From: a virus | Lineage: Duplodnaviria > Heunggongvirae > Uroviricota > Caudoviricetes | IMG/VR virus record: IMGVR_UViG_2563366979_000001 | Coordinates: 1-18,357 of that record | Length of the DNA stretch: 18,357 nt | Reading direction: 5' to 3' (one strand) | Notes under the pieces: generated by a model | Databases searched by the model: none | Told to the model about the DNA's origin: nothing | What the model saw: only the letters and a program-made list of their open reading frames with translations | Part shown: positions 9,379 through 18,357 of the stretch, in pieces | How positions within the stretch are numbered: the stretch's first letter is position 1 | How the letters are laid out: each line of letters starts with the position of its first letter | Translations under genes and position numbers: made by a program

Positions 9379-9515
9379 TGTTTGAGTTTTATATGGCAGA
9401 ACTTCTTCGCCACCGCTGGAGGCGTCTGCGATTATATCGTTTCCCCGGTTCTGTTTTGACCGATTACCGAATACTGAAGAATTACGCCAAAACCCTGACA
9501 GGAGCAGGAGTATGA
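9378..9515 (+). CDS. ylcG: YlcG small protein (45 aa), not in ORF track
   Basis: Manually translated: [48 protein letters not shown] overlaps the rusA stop (TGATG); same position as ylcG in K-12 DLP12. Confidence 0.65.
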   Translation: MFEFYMAELLRHRWRRLRLYRFPGSVLTDYRILKNYAKTLTGAGV

Positions 9516-9600
9516 AGTCAGAGATAACAATCAACTAATACTGTTTTGTTGATTTTTGCTTGTAATTGGCGTTCTGGTCTGATTTTTGTGGAGTAAGTTG

Positions 9601-9978
9601 ATGCGTGATATTCAGATGGTTCTTGAGCGTTGGGGAGCGTGGGCGGCTAATAATCATGAAGATGTGACCTGGTCGTCCATTGCCGCCGGTTTTAAGGGAT
9701 TAATTCCTTCAAAAGTAAAATCTCGCCCACAATGTTGTGACGATGACGCGATGATCATTTGCGGGTGCATGGCCCGTCTGAAAAAGAACAACAGCGATTT
9801 GCATGATTTATTGGTGGACTATTATGTCGGCGGCATGACTTTTATGGCGCTTGCACGTAAGCATGGGCGATCTGATTGTTGGGTTGGCAGGATGCTCCAG
9901 AAAGCTGAGGGCGTAGTGGAGGGTATGCTGATGGTGTTGGATCTCCGATTGGAGATGGATGCTGATTGTTCGAAATAA
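9601..9978 (+). CDS. quuD: Late-gene antiterminator Q (QuuD-like)
   Basis: ATG at 9601 with GGAG 7 nt upstream (ORF-track start at 9586 is a TTG); product [24 protein letters not shown]...[16 protein letters not shown] resembles DLP12 QuuD; position between ylcG and the lysis genes. Confidence 0.85.
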
Positions 9979-10076
9979 TTAAAGGAAAAGTTGCTGTCTG
10001 ATTGTCATTAGTCTAACATTTTAAATGTTGGAATCGCAACGTAGTTATTATCATATAACAGCTTGTTTCCTGATTT

Positions 10077-10105
10077 AGCCAGCCTCCCCAAAGGCTGGTT
10101 TTTTT
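10077..10105 (+). terminator. Intrinsic terminator downstream of Q (candidate tR')
   Basis: Stem CCAGCC (10079-10084) / GGCTGG (10093-10098), 8-nt loop, followed by seven T (10099-10105); oriented for plus-strand transcripts only. Confidence 0.6.
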
Positions 10106-10133
10106 CTAATAAGTATTATTTCGGGTAGGGATT

Positions 10134-10658
10134 TTATTGTTTAACCCATAATAATTCATTGACATTGAATCCCAACTTTTGAGCGGTTCGCGCATAGTCT
10201 GCTTTTACTTTATCTGGAATAGTTGGGGTCCTTGCCAGAATCCATAGGTATTCTCTGTTCGGACCACTGACAAGAGCATACTTATACTCATCATCCAGTT
10301 TGATTACATTATAGCCACCATAGAAGGGGCCAAAAAACGAAACCTTCAACGCTGCAGTTTTAGTATCTCCAGTAAAGTATGCTTTACCTTCGCTCTCGCT
10401 CCATTTATTTTTCGTTGGATCGTATCCACGGTTAAGTACACGAATCCCTCCGTCGTTCCGTTTTCCATAAGTAGCGCTGACCTGTTCCAGACCACGTTCG
10501 AACCGGTTCTCGAGGCGAGCTATTTCATACCATTTTCCGAGGTAGCGGTTGGCGTCAAAATTTGTAATCGGCTGCACACCTTTAGGTGGTGTCGGGGCCT
10601 TACATGCTATAAGAGTGAAAGAGAGTGCAATGCCAGTCAACACAGGCCATAACTTCAT
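10134..10658 (-). CDS. Bacterial lipocalin (Blc-like outer-membrane lipoprotein), divergent paralog
   Basis: 174-aa ORF; lipobox LIAC in signal peptide; lipocalin signature GKWYEIAR plus conserved SEGKAYFTG...LKVSFFGPFYGGYNVI...YLWILARTP blocks that match E. coli Blc as recalled. Confidence 0.85.
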   Translation of the reverse strand: MKLWPVLTGIALSFTLIACKAPTPPKGVQPITNFDANRYLGKWYEIARLENRFERGLEQVSATYGKRNDGGIRVLNRGYDPTKNKWSESEGKAYFTGDTKTAALKVSFFGPFYGGYNVIKLDDEYKYALVSGPNREYLWILARTPTIPDKVKADYARTAQKLGFNVNELLWVKQ

Positions 10659-10690
10659 AATAAATCCTGTACTTTTGATAGTTGAGAGTA

Positions 10691-10740
10691 AGTATGAAAG
10701 ATAGATGATTACGACCGATCACTTAAAGAACTTTCATACT
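10691..10740. promoter_or_regulatory. Perfect 10-bp inverted repeat AGTATGAAAG / CTTTCATACT separated by 30 bp, in the divergent promoter region between the lipocalin and YbgA-like genes
   Basis: Read directly: 10691-10700 and 10731-10740 are exact reverse complements. Confidence 0.4.
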
Positions 10741-10850
10741 ATATTAGGAATAGTCCATAACAGAAAAATTGTCAGTGATGACGCCAGAAAGGCAATTTAT
10801 TCCGTGCACTACACAGTTTATGTGTTAATGAATTAGTCAAGGGGGAGAAT

Positions 10851-11810
10851 ATGATAAAAAAACCTGTGATTGGAATCAGCGGTTGTTTGGCCGGTTCTGC
10901 TGTTCGTTTTGATGGTGGTCACAAAAGAGCTGACTTTTTAATGGACAAATTAGTGGAATGGGTAACATTCAGACCAGTATGTCCGGAAATGGCTATAGGG
11001 CTGCCAGTTCCGCGTCCTGCTCTACGTCTTGTGCGCTCGACGCAAGGAAATATACGGATGTGTTTCAGCTACGACCAGAATGAGGATGTGACAGAGAGAA
11101 TGACAGAGTTTAGTCGTTCTTATATGGACAAATTAAAGGATGTATCGGGGTTTGTGGTTTGTGCTAAATCTCCCAGCTGTGGCATGGAGCGCGTGCGTGT
11201 CTATGATGAAAATGGTAATCGAGGTCGTAAAGATGGAGTGGGACTATTTACGAGCACTTTGATGGAAAAGTTTTCCTGGCTACCGGTTGAAGAGGATGGG
11301 CGATTACATGATCCAGTGCTTCGTGAGAATTTTGTTGAAAGAGTTTTTGCTTTGCATGAGCTCAATCACCTTTACAAGGAGAAATTATCAAGAAGAGAGT
11401 TATTAGCTTTTCATAGTCGTTATAAGCTTCAGTTGTTGGCGCATAGTCAGGCAGGCTATAAAGATATGGGACCATTTGTGGCTGCAATACACGAGTGGGC
11501 GGACCTTGAATCATACTTTGAGGTGTATCGTGATAAGCTGATGGCGATTCTCAGAAAACCTGCATCACGTAAAAATCACACGAATGTGCTGATGCATATA
11601 CAGGGGTATTTTAGTAACTACTTAAGTACACGCCAGCGTAAAGAGTTGAGAGAGGTTATACTTAACTATCGTTCTGGCACATTGCCTCTTCTTGCGCCGT
11701 TGACTCTGCTGAAGCATTATCTGGGTGAGTATCCTAATGATTACTTGCTTACACAGAATTACTTCGATCCCTATCCGGACGAACTGGCTCTAAGACTGAT
11801 GGTAAATTAA
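10851..11810 (+). CDS. DUF523-DUF1722 protein, YbgA/RudS-family putative [4Fe-4S] thiouridine desulfidase
   Basis: 319-aa ORF with strong SD GGGGGAG; N-terminal block GISGCLAGSAVRFDGGHK...RPVCPEMAIGLPVPRPALRL...VVCAKSPSCGMERVRV with Cys12/Cys44/Cys104 spaced like the cluster ligands of TudS-type desulfidases; C-terminal half resembles the DUF1722 part of E. coli YbgA. Confidence 0.8.
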   Translation: MIKKPVIGISGCLAGSAVRFDGGHKRADFLMDKLVEWVTFRPVCPEMAIGLPVPRPALRLVRSTQGNIRMCFSYDQNEDVTERMTEFSRSYMDKLKDVSGFVVCAKSPSCGMERVRVYDENGNRGRKDGVGLFTSTLMEKFSWLPVEEDGRLHDPVLRENFVERVFALHELNHLYKEKLSRRELLAFHSRYKLQLLAHSQAGYKDMGPFVAAIHEWADLESYFEVYRDKLMAILRKPASRKNHTNVLMHIQGYFSNYLSTRQRKELREVILNYRSGTLPLLAPLTLLKHYLGEYPNDYLLTQNYFDPYPDELALRLMVN

Positions 11811-12161
11811 TTGTATGCGATATCATCCAAAAGGATGAGTTCCTGCATGCAGGATATTTACAATCGTAAAAACTACACTATGATACCCAGAGTGTCAGTT
11901 TGTATAAAAACTCTGTTTACGCTGAAGAAACCATTGAGATGCAACTTAAAGTTGGTAAACATGTCAGTCAAAATATATAATATTATGATTCCACGCAGCT
12001 ATATATAATATAACAGATTGGTTTAATAATTTGTCTTTGTGAGTTAAATACATAATTTTATACTTGTGATGCAATGAGATTTTCCTTATTGTTGAACTGG
12101 CGAATATTGATTTTCCACCTATACTTACCTGGTGTAACCCCAATGATATCAGGTGGATAAT

Positions 12162-12893
12162 ATGCCATACATATGTTCTATCATTTTGGTGTTGAACTCG
12201 TTTGATGTCCGAATTGGTAAAGAAGATATTTTGTTTAAAAAAGGAAGTGCTGTTCTCATTGATTACAATTTAAAAGATTTTTTTTCACCAAATATAGATC
12301 ATGTAATGATCGTAGATGTTGAAGAGAAAACAGTTAATGATTTCTTTAAAAGCAACACACTCTCACCTTTTTCTGTAAGAAGGTTTTATCCGGCATACTT
12401 GATGGTGGAATGTGAAGATTTTTCATTGTTAAAGAACTTGATTGCATGCTTGAATTGTGATGGCAGAACTGTGGATGTTGTTAGAAATCAAATATCACTT
12501 GCATGTCTTGCTATCTTATCTTCAGAGAAAATAGTGCAAAGTTTTTTATTTGGATGTCTTAATAGTTTAGGAAGTAAAGTTAAGGCTATTATTCACACGG
12601 ATATATCTGCAGCATGGAGACTTTGTGATATATCTTCAAGGCTGTATCTGAGTGAAAGTCTGTTAAAAAGAAAATTAAAGCACGAAGGCTTATCATTTAG
12701 TAAATTAATTCTTGAAGAGCGAATGGTGATGGCGGAAAGGTTATTAAGCTACAATTTATATTCTGTTGGAAAAGTTGCTGAGATATGCGGTTATGAAAAC
12801 ACGTCATATTTTGTAAGTGTTTTCAGAAGATATTTTGGTGTTCCTCCCCATCAATATTCATCAAGATTTTTTTTAGAAAAAGAAATGATGTAA
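12162..12893 (+). CDS. AraC/XylS-family transcriptional regulator, AppY-like paralog
   Basis: C-terminal AraC-type HTH (LKRKLKHEGLSFSKLILEERMVMAERLL...VAEICGYENTSYFVSVFRRYFGVPP); N-terminus alignable with AppY (YICS.., FKK); ATG 12162 preceded by AGGTGG (ORF-track start 12153 is a GTG inside the SD). Confidence 0.8.
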   Translation: MPYICSIILVLNSFDVRIGKEDILFKKGSAVLIDYNLKDFFSPNIDHVMIVDVEEKTVNDFFKSNTLSPFSVRRFYPAYLMVECEDFSLLKNLIACLNCDGRTVDVVRNQISLACLAILSSEKIVQSFLFGCLNSLGSKVKAIIHTDISAAWRLCDISSRLYLSESLLKRKLKHEGLSFSKLILEERMVMAERLLSYNLYSVGKVAEICGYENTSYFVSVFRRYFGVPPHQYSSRFFLEKEMM

Positions 12894-12954
12894 CGTGATG
12901 CGTTTTAATGATTTTGTGATTTTCGTATTTGATAATTGTATGATGCTTTCAGCT

Positions 12955-12986
12955 ACGCCAGAATAATCGCTGGCGTTTTTCTTTTT
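12955..12986 (+). terminator. Intrinsic terminator between the AraC gene and the holin
   Basis: Stem ACGCCAG (12955-12961) / CTGGCGT (12970-12976), 8-nt loop, followed by TTTTTCTTTTT (to 12986). Confidence 0.65.
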
Positions 12987-13082
12987 GAATAGATGTTCAA
13001 GCCTTACGCTAATGTAACTTCTATACCTTTCCCTCTTCGTTCCGAACCGTGTACACCATCCGTTATTTGCGGAGGTGAGACT

Positions 13083-13298
13083 ATGAAATCCATGGACAAG
13101 TTAACAACGGGCATTGCCTACGGCACCTCCGCAGGCAGTGCTGGCTACTGGTTTTTACAGTGGCTTGATCAGGTCAGTCCATCACAGTGGGCTGCTATTG
13201 GTGTGCTGGGAAGTCTGGTTCTGGGCTTCCTGACTTATCTGACAAATCTGTACTTCAAAATCAGAGAAGACAAGCGTAAGGCTGCGAGAGGTGAATAA
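13083..13298 (+). CDS. essD: Class II pinholin, phage 21 S-type (S21 71/68) with dual-start motif
   Basis: 71-aa product [71 protein letters not shown] is near-identical to phage 21 S / K-12 EssD as recalled; Met1-Lys-Ser-Met4 dual start; SD GGAGGTGA; the ORF-track upstream start at 12993 is rejected. Confidence 0.9.
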
Positions 13299-13504
13299 TG
13301 TCGCCATCATTACGCAAGGCTGTTGCAGCTGCTATTGGTGGTGGGGCTGTTGCCATAGCGTCTGTGCTTATCACTGGTCCGAGTGGTGACGATGGTCTGG
13401 AAGGTGTCAGCTACATACCATATAAAGATATCGTTGGCGTATGGACTGTATGTTACGGGCACACCGGAAAAGACATTATGCTCGGTAAAACGTATGCTGG
13501 TTGA
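13298..13504 (+). pseudogene. rrrD: SAR endolysin (R21/RrrD-type lysozyme) truncated after about codon 66 by a deletion
   Basis: 68-aa [69 protein letters not shown] then AG-stop; matches the SAR domain and E35/D44/T50 region of RrrD/R21 but lacks the remaining roughly 100 residues; start overlaps the essD stop (TAATG). Confidence 0.8.
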
Positions 13505-15665
13505 AGGTTTTCCGCCTTCACATGCCGGGACCATTACCGTCTATGAAGGCTCCAGACCAGGTACGCTGAATGATTTTCTCGGTGCCATGACGGAAGATGA
13601 TGTCATGCCGGAGGCATTGCGTCGTTTTGAGGAAATGGTGGAAGAAGCGGCACGCAACGCTGAAGCCGCCTCTCAGAGCGCAGCGGCGGCAAAGAAATCC
13701 GAAACTGCAGCGGCATCATCGAAGAATGCGGCGAAAACCTCAGAAACGAATGCAGCTAACAGCGCACAGGCGGCAGCGGCCTCGCAGACTGCATCGGCAA
13801 ATTCCGCGACAGCAGCTAAAAAATCAGAAACCAACGCGAAAAATAGCGAGACAGCAGCAAAGACGAGCGAAACCAACGCAAAGTCCAGCCAGACGGCAGC
13901 GAAAACCAGCGAAACGAATGCCAAAGCCAGTGAAACTGCGGCGAAAAACAGCCAGGTTGCAGCAGCTGAAAGCGAGAGCGCAGCAGCCGGTTCTGCGACT
14001 TCAGCAGCTGGATCAGCAACTGCTGCGGCTAACAGCCAGAAAGCTGCGAAGACGAGTGAAACTAACGCAAAGTCCAGCCAGACGGCAGCGAAGACCAGCG
14101 AAACGAATGCCAAAGCCAGCGAAACTGCGGCAAAAAACAGTCAGGATGCAGCGGCCCAAAGCGAGAGTGCCGCAGCTGGTTCTGCAAGTGCGGCAGCTAA
14201 TAGCCAAAAAGCTGCAAAAACCAGTGAAACTAACGCAAAGACGAGTGAAACAAAAGCAGCAGCCAGCGAGACAGAAGCAACGTCAGCCGCAACAAGAGCA
14301 GAGAATGCAGCCCGGATTGCAGAAGATGTCGCTGATCCTGCTTCAGTCCCTCCGCTTCCTGATATCTGGCTACCCTTGAATGATTCTCTGGAAGCGATAA
14401 CAGGGTATGCGCCGGGGTATAAAACAATAACCATCGGTAGTGATGAAATCACTGTGCCAGTTAATGGAATATGTCAGTTTAGCCGGGCTTCATCAGCAAC
14501 GTATATTGATAAGTCCGGGCATATTACCGTGGCAGGTAATAACGTTCCTCGTTTTGAAAAATATGGTTTACTGATAGAGAATCAGCGAACAAACATGTTC
14601 GTAAATAGTTTTAATCCTGATGCCTGGAATAAAAGCGGTGGTATATCTGTAACATCATCAACAGATGAATTTGAGTTTAAATATGGACGTTTCACAGTAG
14701 GAAGCGACATAGCAGGAACGACAACAGGGAGAAATATATGCACAGTTGCTGGTAATAAAGGCATAGATGTGACTGGCGATGATCAGTACAGTAAAGGTCC
14801 GTATGTTACCGCGTCGTTCAGGGTAAGAAGTGATCTCAATGTTCGCGCACGTATCCGTTTTGAACGGTATAACTCGGAAGGATACACTTTTCTTTGTGAC
14901 GCCTATTTGTCATTACAGACCCGTGAACTACAAATTACTGGTGGCAATGCCCAGCTATTAACAGCAAACTTTGAAATCGACCCTGGAAGTGGATGGATAT
15001 ATTTTCAGGCAACACTGAAATGTCTGCCAGAATGGGGAATGGTTGGTACGCAGCTGCAAATTGCAGCCGACAGAGCTGTGGGGTCTTTTGCAACAGGTGA
15101 CTGGATAGAAGTAACCACCCCGCAATTCGAGTATGGTGCCTGTGCAACTTCCTTCATCATAACTACAACAGAGCCAGCGACTCGTGCATCAGATTTATGT
15201 AAATTTCCGCTGATGAAAAATATGTATACCATGCCTTTTACGTTCATGGTGGAAGTCCATAAAAACTGGTTTATTTCTCATAATGCTGCACCGCGCGTAA
15301 TTGATACAGAAAACCATCAGTCAGGTGCTCCATTTATCATGGGATTTGGCTCTTCTGGAACTATCAGTCAGGACGGTTATCCCTATTGTGATATAGGCGG
15401 GGCTAACCGGCGTGTATATGAGTCATGCGGAGTAAGAGATCTCGTTATGGGATTCAGGGTTAAGGCTGACGGCATGACATGCTCATTTGCAAATAAGCAT
15501 ATAAGCACAGAAACAAAAACAGTATGGAAATATATTCGTGAAGCTGCTGTGATTCGTATCGGGGGGCAAACGACGACAGGATTGCGACACCTTAATGGTC
15601 ATATAAAAAATCTCCGTTTCTGGAACAGAGCATTGTCAGATACGCAGCTTAAGGAATACGTATAA
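13494..15665 (+). CDS. Side tail fibre protein (lambda Stf-like), N-terminally truncated, with a LamG/concanavalin-like C-terminal domain; possibly a non-expressed remnant
   Basis: From about 13497 the frame reads [34 protein letters not shown]..., matching lambda Stf from about residue 38; Ala/Ser/Thr-rich SETNAK repeats; C-terminus ends [17 protein letters not shown] (LamG-like motif); upstream part of the 760-aa ORF is the rrrD region in another frame; first in-frame ATG at 13494 has no SD. Confidence 0.7.
13867..14223 (+). repeat. Two imperfect tandem repeats of about 170-190 bp inside stf, encoding the Ala-rich shaft
   Basis: Unit ...[42 protein letters not shown]...AANSQKAAK occurs twice (nt about 13867-14055 and 14056-14223), one copy with a 21-nt indel. 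Confidence 0.6.
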
Positions 15666-15934
15666 TGCGGGATATAACATTACGATTCGATAACAGAGAA
15701 CAGTTTAACGCAATTGTATATGACAGTGGCCTGTTCAGTCTTGAAGAAGAAAATGGGGTTCTTGTTGATGTTATTGGCTGCATTATCGATTACGAGGAGC
15801 CAGAAAACGAAGGATGTACAGGCATTGAGCGCGGTGGTTTTTTCGTAAACATGAGGATTGTTGATGGCAGTAAAAACATATCTTCTTTAATGCCTTTCAT
15901 TACGACAGATCAGCATGTAAGGACATGGGCTTAA
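15665..15934 (+). CDS. Hypothetical protein (89 aa), translationally coupled to stf; possibly a tail-fibre accessory protein
   Basis: ATG overlaps the stf stop (TAATG); no recognisable motif. Confidence 0.45.
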   Translation: MRDITLRFDNREQFNAIVYDSGLFSLEEENGVLVDVIGCIIDYEEPENEGCTGIERGGFFVNMRIVDGSKNISSLMPFITTDQHVRTWA

Positions 15935-15946
15935 TGGAGTAAGACA

Positions 15947-16630
15947 ATGGTTACAAAAACAGTAATTCCGGGAGACATCACCACGCTAAAGGGAGATATT
16001 TCCTCAATTAACGGAAAAGTATCAACGCTTCAGACTGAGATGACCAGTGCAAAGCAGGATATCAGCTCCAGATACACAAAAACTGAAGTTGATAATAAGC
16101 TGAAAAACAAAGTGGAAGTGAACGATCTGGAAAGTGGTCGTTATGGCGGAGATTTTTACCCGCTGACTGGCCGTGAAGCGTTTTATTTATGGGGATTGGG
16201 CACAACTACAGCGGCGGCAAATCTTTATCTTAATCCTGACCCTGCAATTTCGTCTGTGCTGCGGTCAACATCGTCTATCCGCTATAAACATTCAGTAGAG
16301 ACGATAGATTCAGAGCACGCCGATCTCATTTTCAGGATGCGCCCTGTGTGGTACAGGTCGCAATGCGAAAATGACAGGCGTGACTGGGGATTCTATGGAT
16401 TGATTGCCGAGGAAGTAGGAGAAATTGCCCCTCAGTTTGTTCACTGGCGACCAGCCAACGAAGATGATGCACCGGAAACCATTTCCAGCAATGGCCTTGT
16501 TGCCGAAGGTGTAATGTACGAACGTCTGGTTGTTCCACTGATTCACCATATCCAGAAACTGACTGAAAGAGTTGATGAACTTGAGTCAGAATTGAAGTTG
16601 TTATCAACTTCCCAAAGCGATATCGGATAA
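15947..16630 (+). CDS. Small tail-fibre/tailspike-like protein with C-terminal peptidase-S74 intramolecular chaperone domain
   Basis: 227-aa ORF, GGAG 7 nt upstream; C-terminal SSIRYKHSVETIDSEHADLIFRMRPVWYR...GFYGLIAEEVGEIAPQFV...GVMYERLVVPLIHHIQKLTERVDELESELKLL fits the S74 chaperone-domain pattern (S-x-R-x-K ... GLIAQEV ... Y..L.PLLIEA.KEL); N-terminal about 110 aa looks coiled-coil-like. Confidence 0.7.
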   Translation: MVTKTVIPGDITTLKGDISSINGKVSTLQTEMTSAKQDISSRYTKTEVDNKLKNKVEVNDLESGRYGGDFYPLTGREAFYLWGLGTTTAAANLYLNPDPAISSVLRSTSSIRYKHSVETIDSEHADLIFRMRPVWYRSQCENDRRDWGFYGLIAEEVGEIAPQFVHWRPANEDDAPETISSNGLVAEGVMYERLVVPLIHHIQKLTERVDELESELKLLSTSQSDIG

Positions 16631-16640
16631 AGGAGGAGTA

Positions 16641-16934
16641 ATGGATATAACACCTTTTCTTCATGCGCTTTGTGCTGTGGCTGCGCAGGTACTGATTGGC
16701 CTTTTTACCGGAAACTGGGCTTACGGGGCGATAGCCGGTTGTACGTTCTTCATTGCGCGTGAACACACCCAGGCAGAATATCGCTGGATTGAAATGTTCG
16801 GGCATGGCAAGCGAATGAATATGCCGTGGTGGGGCGGTTTTGATCCGCGCGCATGGGATGTGGCAAGCCTGATGGATTTTGCTGTGCCGGTGGTGGCGTG
16901 TCTGCTGGTCTGGCTGTTGGTTAATCGTGGGTGA
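16641..16934 (+). CDS. Small integral membrane protein (97 aa, about 3 predicted TM segments), function unknown
   Basis: Strong SD AGGAGG 6 nt before ATG; hydrophobic stretches at residues about 6-22, 26-39 and 77-94. Confidence 0.55.
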   Translation: MDITPFLHALCAVAAQVLIGLFTGNWAYGAIAGCTFFIAREHTQAEYRWIEMFGHGKRMNMPWWGGFDPRAWDVASLMDFAVPVVACLLVWLLVNRG

Positions 16935-16944
16935 AAAAAGGTGA

Positions 16945-17064
16945 GCTGTATATGCAACGGAGGAAGAAAACTCGTTGCTGGAAGCCTGGAAGAAGTATCG
17001 GGTGTTGCTGAACCGTGTGGACACTTCCGTAGCACCAGATATCGAGTGGCTTATTCAACCATAA
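16945..17064 (+). pseudogene. tfaX: 3' fragment of a tail-fibre assembly (Tfa) gene
   Basis: Open frame [40 protein letters not shown] matches the conserved C-terminus of lambdoid Tfa proteins ([30 protein letters not shown] as recalled for TfaE); no start codon or N-terminal region present. Confidence 0.55.
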
Positions 17065-17607
17065 TAAACAGTATGTATATCATAGGTTATTAATTGTGAG
17101 TTTTTTCGGTGTGTTATTTGTTTGTTTGATGTTATGCTTTTGCGCCCCAAAAGGTTGTTTAGATGTATTTTATCAATTGATTTTCAATATCGTTTAATAA
17201 AGAAAAATTAAGCAAGTTGGATGTTGATTTTTTGTTAATTGAATGGTTCTAATAATGTTTTTTTACTGTTGTTGAATGTGACTTGATAAGAAATGCAAGT
17301 AAAAATGATGCTCTTTTTATTTTAAATTCAAACGGTTGATATATATAGCAAGAGGTTTCAGGTGCGTTGTAGTGAGTTTATGTTAATAAAAAGCATAGTA
17401 AGCGTTGAAAAATGTAACTTTGAAATACGTTAGAATAAAAAACAATATACATATAATAATTTAATCTTAAATGAAATTTATTAAAATTTGCAAACTATAA
17501 TTTTGTGTATAAAAATATAAATGCACATCATCCTGATTATGATTGTGTATTTAATTGGTTGTTATTTGACTACTATCAACTTGCTTTAATTTTATGATAG
17601 GTGCAAG

Positions 17608-18357
17608 ATGGATTATGTTTGCTCCGTAGTTTTCATCTGTCAATCATTTGATTTAATTATAAACAGGAGAGTTATCTCGTTCAAAAAAAATTCATTGTTT
17701 ATTGTAAACGACAAAATTAGAAGGGAGTTACCAGTATGCCCCTCTAAACTAAGAATTGTTGATATAGATAAGAAAACATGTTTATCCTTTTTTATCGACG
17801 TGAATAATGATCTGCCTGGCAAATTTACTCTTGATAAGAATGGCTATATTGCTGAAGAGGAACCTCCATTATCGCTTGTTTTTTCTCTGTTTGAAGGGAT
17901 TAAAATAGCAGACTCACACTCCCTTTGGTTAAAAGAAAGACTATGTATATCCTTACTTGCCATGTTCAAAAAACGCGAAAGTGTAAATTCATTTATACTA
18001 ACAAATATAAATACATTTACCTGTAAAATTACTGGAATAATCAGTTTTAATATTGAGCGGCAATGGCATTTAAAAGATATTGCGGAATTGATTTATACGA
18101 GTGAAAGTTTAATAAAAAAAAGATTAAGAGATGAAGGAACGTCATTTACTGAAATATTGAGAGATACTAGGATGAGGTATGCAAAAAAACTCATAACTTC
18201 AAACTCTTATTCTATTAATGTCGTAGCCCAGAAATGTGGCTATAACAGTACTTCATATTTCATATGTGCATTTAAAGATTATTATGGTGTCACGCCATCT
18301 CATTATTTTGAGAAAATAATCGGCGTCACAGATGGAATAAACAAAACAATTGACTGA
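17608..18357 (+). CDS. appY: AraC-family regulator AppY; the TGA stop is the last three bases of the window
   Basis: 249-aa [36 protein letters not shown]... near-identical to K-12 AppY as recalled; preceded by about 540 bp of very AT-rich DNA. Confidence 0.9.

Follow-up and report, generated by a model that had tools for sequence, protein, structure and literature searches.

AraC2, the second AraC-type regulator gene of a decayed Escherichia coli prophage, probably encodes a functional phage-borne AraC/XylS factor of the PatE clade that activates AT-rich H-NS-repressed host promoters in trans, a reading to which we assign a probability of about 0.6 by analogy with characterized relatives. 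By its sequence, AraC2 belongs to the PatE clade within the GadW/AppY/YdeO/PatE subgroup, a small group of enterobacterial regulators, and is no AppY copy.

The prophage and its two regulator genes

The window, that is, the whole stretch of 18,357 nucleotides that was analyzed, is 100% identical at positions 4162-18357 to scaffold KB733040.1 of GCA_000352345.1. Both regulator genes reside in a single E. coli prophage, which has decayed: it lacks an early region as well as the majority of the late genes, with deletion junctions at 2342 and 13495. Similarity to intact relatives ends at 13495, where the similarity of the tail-fibre gene and appY starts, and a further locus (L027) encodes a 68-residue Phage_lysozyme fragment and, after it, a phage_tail_N protein. 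In strain Br_167_kylling, a prophage at argU that is apparently full length contains both AraC2 and appY. Rfam and tRNA scans across the window gave no matches. The features considered here are as follows.

9586..9978, + strand: Q antiterminator of the QuuD type (Pfam Phage_antitermQ, 173 bits), left edge of the cargo slot
10077..10100, + strand: terminator-like hairpin and T run 3' of Q (9-pair stem with 5 G-C pairs, then TTTTTTTCT)
10134..10658, - strand: Blc-type outer-membrane lipocalin, cargo (NCBIfam Blc, 313.8 bits against a cut-off of 267; Pfam Lipocalin_2)
10851..11810, + strand: RudS-type gene, a TudS desulfidase-DUF1722 fusion annotated as 'YbgA family' (Pfam 2-thiour_desulf and DUF1722)
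11811..12161, + strand: AT-rich region upstream of AraC2, 32.2% GC
12162..12893, + strand: AraC2, intact open reading frame for a 243-residue AraC/XylS regulator of the PatE clade
12955..12976, + strand: terminator-like hairpin and T run in the AraC2-holin gap (7-pair stem with 5 G-C pairs, then TTTTCTTTTT)
13083..13298, + strand: essD holin of the phage 21 S type (Pfam Phage_holin_2_1, 118.8 bits), right edge of the slot
13298..13504, + strand: rrrD lysozyme remnant of 68 codons, fused at the deletion junction at about 13495 to the tail-fibre gene
17065..17607, + strand: AT-rich region upstream of appY, 25.0% GC
17608..18357, + strand: appY, 249 residues, 99.2% protein identity to K-12 AppY (b0564); its stop codon ends at the last base of the window

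The segment from 16954 to the end of appY is 98.7% identical to K-12, and the encoded AppY passes the Pfam HTH_18 and HTH_AraC cut-offs. In the source genome, ompT and then envY follow immediately after appY. AppY has gadE as a direct target and also controls hya and app (PMC10057817). The K-12 DLP12 prophage already has two AraC regulators, ybcM and appY, with envY adjoining; two such regulators are the norm in this DLP12-type prophage family, and the arrangement is an ordinary one.

Integrity and structure of AraC2

The start of AraC2 was taken as the ATG at 12162, as in RefSeq and in all homologues, while the open-reading-frame list reaches a GTG at 12153. The product exceeds the Pfam cut-offs for HTH_18 (54.9 bits, cut-off 33.6, residues 158-234) and HTH_AraC (44.1 bits, cut-off 26.6), and its C-terminal domain, of about 100 residues, has the two helix-turn-helix motifs that place a protein in the AraC/XylS family. 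Every invariant residue and column of the DNA-binding domain is kept in the alignment, no internal stop was found in the reading frame, and dN/dS amounts to 0.21-0.26 for the whole gene and 0.07-0.17 for the DNA-binding domain, values that indicate purifying selection. The original prediction of a second AraC regulator at 12162-12893 in the same element is borne out: the gene is intact, AT-rich and horizontally acquired, its product shares a narrow subgroup with AppY, and it is neither a degraded pseudogene nor broken in its helix-turn-helix region. The exact protein is present on 196 contigs, and truncated copies occur in some genomes.

An AlphaFold2 model of AraC2 (mean pLDDT 79.5) has two domains, the N-terminal one of beta/alpha type and the C-terminal one with a double helix-turn-helix. 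The modelled DNA-binding domain superposes on that of GadX (3mkl) with an rmsd of 1.2-1.6 A, and those of MarA and AraC match as well. The best full-length structural matches are Rns, CsvR and ToxT, at an E value of about 1e-11.

Family placement

AraC2 and AppY are homologous over their full length, with 32% identity (31.8%) over 233 residues and an E value of 1e-41, and they share PHROG 1450. The more specific claim that AraC2 is a diverged AppY-like paralog does not hold, since in full-length protein identity AppY (31.8%) is no nearer to AraC2 than GadW (33.8%) or YdeO (32.1%) is. Its identity to PatE, here represented by ECs_0287 on the basis of its position in Sp1/OI-8 rather than of a published sequence, is 53.6%, and this alignment spans 235 residues of proteins 247 (PatE) and 243 residues long. 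In the tree, the AraC2 and PatE clades are split from all other members with 100% bootstrap support and AppY is joined to GadW with 99%, both values being computed on unrooted splits; AraC2 does not group with AppY to the exclusion of the others. PsrA and PsrB were left out of the identity comparison and the tree. They were sought through the locus tags given in PMC10877973 (z1789 in OI-50 and z2104 in OI-57), and no AraC homologue was detected by tblastn in Sakai Sp6 (L010) or EDL933 CP-933N (L011).

Membership of the GadW/AppY/YdeO/PatE subgroup is indicated by homology that runs through the N-terminal domain: BLASTP alignments cover 233-237 residues for GadW, AppY, YdeO and PatE and only about 100-117 for GadX and AdiY. 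The NCBIfam YdeO model NF007407 is the best match (residues 1-236) but scores below threshold, at 131.3 bits (cut-off 348), as does the GadX model, at 86 bits (cut-off 500). Among 1.84 billion proteins, only ten clusters, formed at 50% identity, match AraC2 with E <= 1e-30, and the subgroup is therefore narrow. The first recognition-helix region, SESLLKRKLK, is the same in AraC2 and PatE, whereas the second is not (NTSYFVSVFRRYFG in AraC2 and SVSYFTYVFRRYFG in PatE), and at 53.6% identity the DNA specificity need not be the same.

The Q-holin slot

The gene at 9586..9978 carries the RefSeq label 'antiterminator Q family protein' in a 99.5%-identical relative, and the essD coordinates agree with RefSeq at another locus (L001) with an offset of 6659 bases. 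The hairpin at 10077-10100 is probably the late-leader terminator (tR'); it also lies just beyond the end of the convergent blc, and an equivalent hairpin follows Q at the locus of the 57% homologue (L018). RudS retains Cys12, Cys44 and Cys110 and is 92.8% identical to the copy in phage Lambda_2G7a. RudS_vir (gp66) is encoded at the equivalent position in 1H12, a closely related phage, and its overexpression lowered tRNA 4-thiouridine (PMC11417400).

The slot between Q and the holin in lambda-like phages is a recurrent site of non-phage cargo, such as nmpC in K-12 and stx2 in an Stx2k phage, in which a 38.8% homologue of AraC2 lies between Q and stx2. Units of the AraC2 type were found behind three Q families (PF06530, PF03589 and PF06323), and the homologues that share 64% and 57% identity with AraC2 have Q directly on one side and the holin on the other, with different Q families and neither blc nor rudS. 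PatE-type copies are located after tail-fibre genes. A link between AraC2 and an inverse autotransporter, found together in the window and again in the case of the 64% homologue, was considered and rejected, as other carriers have no autotransporter.

Expression signals and base composition

AraC2 looks like a self-contained insert in this slot, equipped with a -10-like box, a ribosome-binding site and a terminator of its own. The conserved -10-like TATACT is at 12120-12125, a weak -35-like CTGGCG is at 12097-12102 and the ribosome-binding site AGGTGG is at 12151-12156. Five homologues, down to 57% protein identity, all have TATACTT and CAGGTGG unchanged, and the sequences farther upstream are unrelated. 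As a sigma-70 promoter, the same -10-like box reaches a score of 9-10 out of 12 at two loci (L017 and L018), and an equivalent terminator is found 3' of the 57% homologue. A sigma-70 consensus scan of the region gave matches no commoner than in shuffled sequence, and promoter-like matches at 11857-11884 and 11952-11981 were at chance level; the predicted promoter accordingly draws on conservation across homologues. The Q-holin position, the conserved TATACT, the terminator at 12955-12976 and a GC content of 32% versus 43% agree with the features of a phage moron, the promoter among them being predicted.

The AT-rich DNA that had been noted upstream of both genes was confirmed, at 32.2% GC (11811-12161) and 25.0% (17065-17607) compared with 43.3% for the window, and the AraC2 and appY genes themselves have 31-32%. 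The H-NS nucleation motif TCGATAAATT was not enriched, with 19 matches in the window versus 26 expected and none in 11811-12161. Control of appY by H-NS has been described (PMC10057817); for AraC2, silencing by H-NS is putative, as suggested by AT-richness.

Proposed role and alternatives

By analogy with PatE, PsrB and AppY, AraC2 would act in trans and activate AT-rich host promoters that are repressed by H-NS. Activation of gadE and hdeA with a gain in acid resistance is known only for PatE and PsrB (PMC10877973), and the leading candidate targets of AraC2 would be gadE and hdeAB in the acid fitness island. AraC2 would then be a second, independently acquired prophage input to the network into which AppY feeds from the opposite end of the element. 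Since the early region and most of the late genes have been lost, phage late transcription cannot account for AraC2 expression, which must depend on the gene's own promoter or on read-through out of rudS. Searches of databases and the literature returned neither a target gene nor a binding site nor any expression data for AraC2.

A local role, in which AraC2 turns on the divergent blc and rudS, for example under near-UV or envelope stress, with little effect on the host, is the best of the alternatives but is rather unlikely. The clade at 82-100% identity always has the order Q - blc(-) - rudS - AraC2 - holin, in DLP12-type prophages, the E. coli B Qin prophage and free phages alike, and this constant adjacency keeps the role in consideration. 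No terminator is predicted in the gap between rudS and AraC2, so that co-transcription is possible, and chromosomal rudS genes reportedly adjoin a regulator of the MerR family (PMC11417400). However, blc and rudS are absent beside the 64% and 57% homologues in the same slot, which argues against dedicated control of that cargo and weakens the earlier suggestion that the regulator acts on the adjacent lipocalin and YbgA-like genes. PatE-type relatives likewise have no blc or rudS neighbours, and in E. coli B an IS3 interrupts rudS but the regulator is intact. Furthermore, divergence between the window and Lambda_2G7a is uneven (Blc 96.6%, RudS 92.8% and AraC2 82.7% identity), which points to a mosaic rather than one co-evolving unit, and a repeat search for operator-like sequences common to the blc-rudS and AraC2 upstream regions gave only short chance-level matches.

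A broader scheme is speculative and improbable: AraC2 might serve a phage stress module of three genes as sensor and regulator, receiving a lipid or fatty-acid signal at an N-terminal domain like those of Rns and ToxT and co-ordinating Blc (envelope lipids) and RudS (tRNA 4-thiouridine removal, near-UV) with the host acid and stationary-phase regulons, with AppY cross-talk at gadE giving two inputs from one prophage remnant.

It is very doubtful that AraC2 is a diverged duplicate of AppY, a redundant second copy with the same regulon (hya, app/cbd and gadE). The full-length homology, the shared PHROG and the location in one prophage would suit such an origin, but AraC2 is equally far from GadW, YdeO and AppY and much nearer to PatE, the tree parts AppY and GadW from AraC2 and PatE, and the two genes occupy separate cargo slots whose contents vary independently: AraC2 is accompanied in strain WP4-S18-ESBL-07 by a methyltransferase in the place of appY, and K-12 has appY with nmpC in the Q-holin slot.

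Equally doubtful is a service to the phage itself, in which AraC2, placed immediately before the lysis genes, would tune late or lysis genes or lysogeny in intact phages and be a leftover in this remnant. The Q-holin position is kept behind three Q families, the 38.8% homologue lies between Q and stx2 in the Stx2k phage, and Q-modified late transcription would traverse AraC2 in an intact phage. Against this, AraC2 has its own promoter-like box and terminator, it is intact and under purifying selection in decayed prophages incapable of a lytic cycle, the slot repeatedly holds non-phage cargo (nmpC and stx2), and the characterized relatives PatE, PsrB and AppY work on host genes. That AraC2 is a decaying, non-functional remnant is hardly credible, for although its host prophage is heavily deleted and some genomes have truncated copies, it combines a full-length reading frame and an intact double helix-turn-helix with a dN/dS of about 0.2, and beyond the 196 contigs with the exact protein a 99.6% copy is found in an active phage.

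Distribution and significance

The AraC2 gene type was present in 996 of 5,426 complete E. coli genomes and appY in 828 of the same 5,426; the type is at least as common as appY in such genomes. The active phage with the 99.6% copy is IdasGreatGrand, phages of the Lambda_ev/1H12 type have copies at 82.7%, and E. coli B has the same cassette in its Qin prophage. Databases give the gene generic names only, and literature searches on the gene and the cassette found no characterization.

AraC2 is thus a common, unnamed and unstudied relative of PatE, and prophage AraC regulators (AppY, PatE and PsrB) in the acid-resistance and stationary-phase network are already known. It adds nothing conceptually new, DLP12-type elements with several AraC regulators having been described. 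If AraC2 behaves like PatE, it would be a widespread and overlooked source of strain differences in acid tolerance and in the expression of silenced genes. In addition, it adjoins a phage rudS whose 1H12 counterpart has been tested experimentally, and the regulator could help to explain the timing of this enzyme.

Comparison with known systems

The closest characterized homologue of AraC2 is PatE (z0321/ECs_0287; CP-933H/Sp1 of E. coli O157:H7), which activates gadB, gadC, gadE and hdeAB (PMC10877973). Both genes are AT-rich and carried by lambda-like prophages. However, PatE is at the tail-fibre and attachment end of its prophage, beside an IS3 fragment, whereas AraC2 lies between Q and the holin, and nearly half of the residues differ, some of them in the second recognition-helix region. 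AppY resembles AraC2 in its subgroup, full-length homology, PHROG 1450, prophage location and AT-rich upstream DNA, but it is a sister of GadW, and its slot is at the right end of the prophage by ompT.

GadW, YdeO and GadX are chromosomal acid-resistance AraC regulators of E. coli, whereas AraC2 is phage-borne. YbcM (b0546), the other AraC regulator of K-12 DLP12, is a precedent for two in one DLP12 element, and some DLP12 variants have ybcM together with AraC2 (confirmed by tblastn at L024); the two proteins are unrelated outside the DNA-binding domain (22% over 125 residues), and the YbcM slot is upstream of ybcN. Finally, the virulence regulators Rns, CsvR and ToxT, for which full-length structures have been solved, have the two-domain plan in common with AraC2, but their identity to it is 17-20% and their domain orientation differs from that of the model (TM about 0.4).

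The two regulator genes

The product of 17608-18357 is AppY (99.2% identity to K-12 b0564), and a further AraC/XylS regulator of 243 aa, referred to here as AraC2, is encoded at 12162-12893. The RefSeq start of AraC2 is identical in 99.5%-identical genomes, where the product is named only 'helix-turn-helix domain-containing protein'. Both proteins score above the Pfam thresholds for HTH_18 and HTH_AraC, belong to the phage protein family PHROG 1450 and align with each other at 32% identity over 233 residues (E 1e-41), which bears out the original prediction of a second AraC regulator besides appY in one prophage. A check for a broken AraC helix-turn-helix or a degraded copy found every invariant position kept in the DNA-binding domain of AraC2, with dN/dS against homologues of 0.21-0.26 overall and 0.07-0.17 within that domain, which argues against a pseudogene. 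The AT-rich DNA described upstream of both genes was also recovered: the GC content is 32% in 11811-12161 and 25% in 17065-17607, compared with 31-32% in both genes and 43% in the whole window. A motif scan of the window showed no enrichment of the H-NS nucleation motif, and silencing of AraC2 by H-NS may be proposed only from this AT-richness.

Relationships and structure of AraC2

AraC2 had been described as an AppY-like paralog. Homology within the same subgroup stands, but the kinship was stated too specifically, as the closest characterised relative is PatE, the AraC-like acid-resistance regulator of prophage CP-933H/Sp1 of E. coli O157:H7. ECs_0287 was taken as PatE (z0321, OI-8) because it is the sole AraC gene annotated in prophage Sp1.

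Identity of AraC2 to other AraC-family regulators
PatE (Sakai ECs_0287): 53.6%, full length
GadW: 33.8%, full length
YdeO: 32.1%, full length
AppY: 31.8%, full length
GadX and AdiY: about 40%, confined to the DNA-binding domain
EnvY: 29.6%, 216 residues
YbcM: 22%, 125 residues

In a bootstrapped neighbour-joining tree with support scored on unrooted splits, the AraC2 clade joins the PatE clade (100%), whereas AppY joins GadW (99%); GadX, AdiY and EnvY group together (97%). AraC2 is not a derivative of AppY. The top NCBIfam model for AraC2 is YdeO, matched over the full length but at 131 bits, below its cut-off of 348, and the subgroup is narrow, only 10 clusters (50% identity) among 1.84 billion proteins reaching E <= 1e-30. 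The AlphaFold2 model (mean pLDDT 79.5) predicts an N-terminal beta/alpha domain followed by a double helix-turn-helix domain; the modelled DNA-binding domain fits that of GadX (3mkl) with an rmsd of 1.2-1.6 A, and the closest full-length structural matches are Rns, CsvR and ToxT (E about 1e-11).

Locus anatomy and linkage to blc and rudS

The genes and signals around AraC2 are arranged as follows.

9586-9978, plus strand, Q antiterminator
10077-10100, plus strand, terminator-like hairpin
10134-10658, minus strand, blc lipocalin
10851-11810, plus strand, RudS-type gene
11811-12161, plus strand, AT-rich spacer
12162-12893, plus strand, AraC2
12955-12976, plus strand, second terminator-like hairpin
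13083-13298, plus strand, holin essD

When the upstream regions of AraC2 and four homologues (83% down to 57% protein identity) were aligned, only the last ~80 bases were conserved, with an invariant TATACTT (12120-12126) and an invariant CAGGTGG followed by ATG at the start. The box lies within a 9-10/12 sigma-70 match in two distant homologues, and the -35 element in the window, CTGGCG, is weak. AraC2 therefore brings along a -10-like box, a ribosome-binding site and a terminator of its own, a classic moron layout in which the promoter is predicted.

Within the 82-100% identity clade, the gene order Q - blc - rudS - AraC2 - holin does not vary; it is found in DLP12-type prophages, in active phages (AraC2 copies of 99.6% in IdasGreatGrand and 82.7% in Lambda_ev/1H12-type phages) and in E. 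coli B within the Qin prophage. In the latter (ATCC 11303, locus L020, 8124-13120), an IS3 element splits rudS and the regulator is intact (237 aa). However, homologues of 64% and 57% identity stand directly between Q and holin without blc or rudS, behind different Q families; PatE-type copies are located after tail-fibre genes; and a 38.8% homologue in phage phiSTEC1575-Stx2k (L016, 3501-4214) has the Q antiterminator on one side and the tRNA-stx2 genes on the other. The linkage is thus recent rather than conserved, and this pattern appears to argue against a dedicated local-regulator role, weakening the proposal that AraC2 regulates the adjacent cargo. The Stx2k-phage homologue occupies the same transcription-unit position as the toxin genes.

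The gene at 10851-11810, annotated as 'YbgA family', encodes a fusion of TudS desulfidase and DUF1722 of the RudS type, with Cys12, Cys44 and Cys110 present and 92.8% identity to the phage Lambda_2G7a copy. Overexpression of the equivalent RudS_vir (gp66) of the closely related phage 1H12 reduced tRNA 4-thiouridine (PMC11417400). The same paper states that RudS is absent from E. coli (PMC11417400); contrary to this, prophages of E. coli commonly carry the RudS cassette.

The prophage element and its variants

The window represents the decayed remains of a lambda-like prophage of DLP12 type, located at argU. Identity to K-12 DLP12 is 99.5% for intD, 95% for the ybcN-to-Q block, 85% for the essD-rrrD fragment and 98.7% for the tfaX-appY stretch. 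Two blocks present in full-length relatives are missing: the early region with cI, O and P has been deleted at junction 2342, and at junction 13495 a deletion begins within the lysozyme gene rrrD and ends within a tail-fibre gene, leaving rrrD shortened to 68 codons and fused to the latter. The genes for lysis, packaging, head and tail have consequently been lost, and the element cannot undergo a lytic cycle.

The slot that holds ybcL-ybcM in K-12 DLP12 is filled by an inverse autotransporter gene of intimin/invasin type (2672-6583, 1303 aa), with a 357-bp tandem duplication at 3983-4686 (two copies, 98% identity), and a convergent alpha/beta hydrolase gene (6620-7663). The tail-fibre gene (13383-15665) carries 42-bp and 189-bp repeats at 13808-14258, which encode an Ala/Ser/Thr/Lys-rich tract and have 53-56% GC with strong AT skew.

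Over 4162-18357 the window matches scaffold KB733040.1 of E. coli assembly GCA_000352345.1 at 100% identity, and immediately beyond the last base of the window this source genome continues with ompT and envY (L027, 14446-16673). A third AraC-family regulator, EnvY, thus lies ~1.7 kb past the window end; it is 99.6% identical to that of K-12.

The presence of two AraC regulators in one prophage is nothing out of the ordinary. In K-12, DLP12 contains both ybcM and appY, and envY lies just beyond its annotated border; these several AraC regulators are reported in the AppY paper itself (PMC10057817). In strain Br_167_kylling, a prophage at argU that is apparently full-length carries appY together with AraC2 (100% nucleotide identity), and strain WP4-S18-ESBL-07 has AraC2 with a methyltransferase in the appY position. 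Some other E. coli DLP12 variants (L024 and L026) combine ybcL-ybcM upstream of ybcN with the Blc-RudS-AraC2 cassette (ybcM confirmed in L024 by tblastn), giving at least two AraC-family regulators per element. Among 5,426 complete E. coli genomes, 996 contain AraC2-type genes at coverage >= 80%, and 828 contain appY. The Q-holin slot and the appY slot vary independently.

Proposed function and comparison with known regulators

GadW and YdeO work on the acid fitness island, to which gadE and hdeAB belong. PatE and PsrB are activators of gadE and hdeAB and increase acid resistance (PMC10877973), and the direct targets of AppY include gadE besides hya and app (PMC10057817). A review puts PsrA at z1789 in OI-50 (CP-933N) (PMC10877973); tblastn found no AraC-family homologue in the first ~42 kb of EDL933 CP-933N (L011) or in Sakai Sp6 (L010), which spans the equivalent prophage, and either the locus tag or the island given for PsrA may be incorrect.

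In the window remnant, AraC2 would be expressed only from its own putative promoter or by transcription continuing from rudS, to which an intact phage would add Q-modified late transcription. A literature search found no paper characterising AraC2, database names being generic. AraC2 is an easy and probably worthwhile object for regulon mapping, though no surprise. The first recognition-helix region of AraC2 is identical to that of PatE and, together with the subgroup fold, leads us to expect an activator in trans, probably of host promoters that are AT-rich and repressed by H-NS; the foremost candidate target is the acid fitness island. AraC2 is a widespread, uncharacterised member of the PatE clade among a known kind of prophage-borne regulators.
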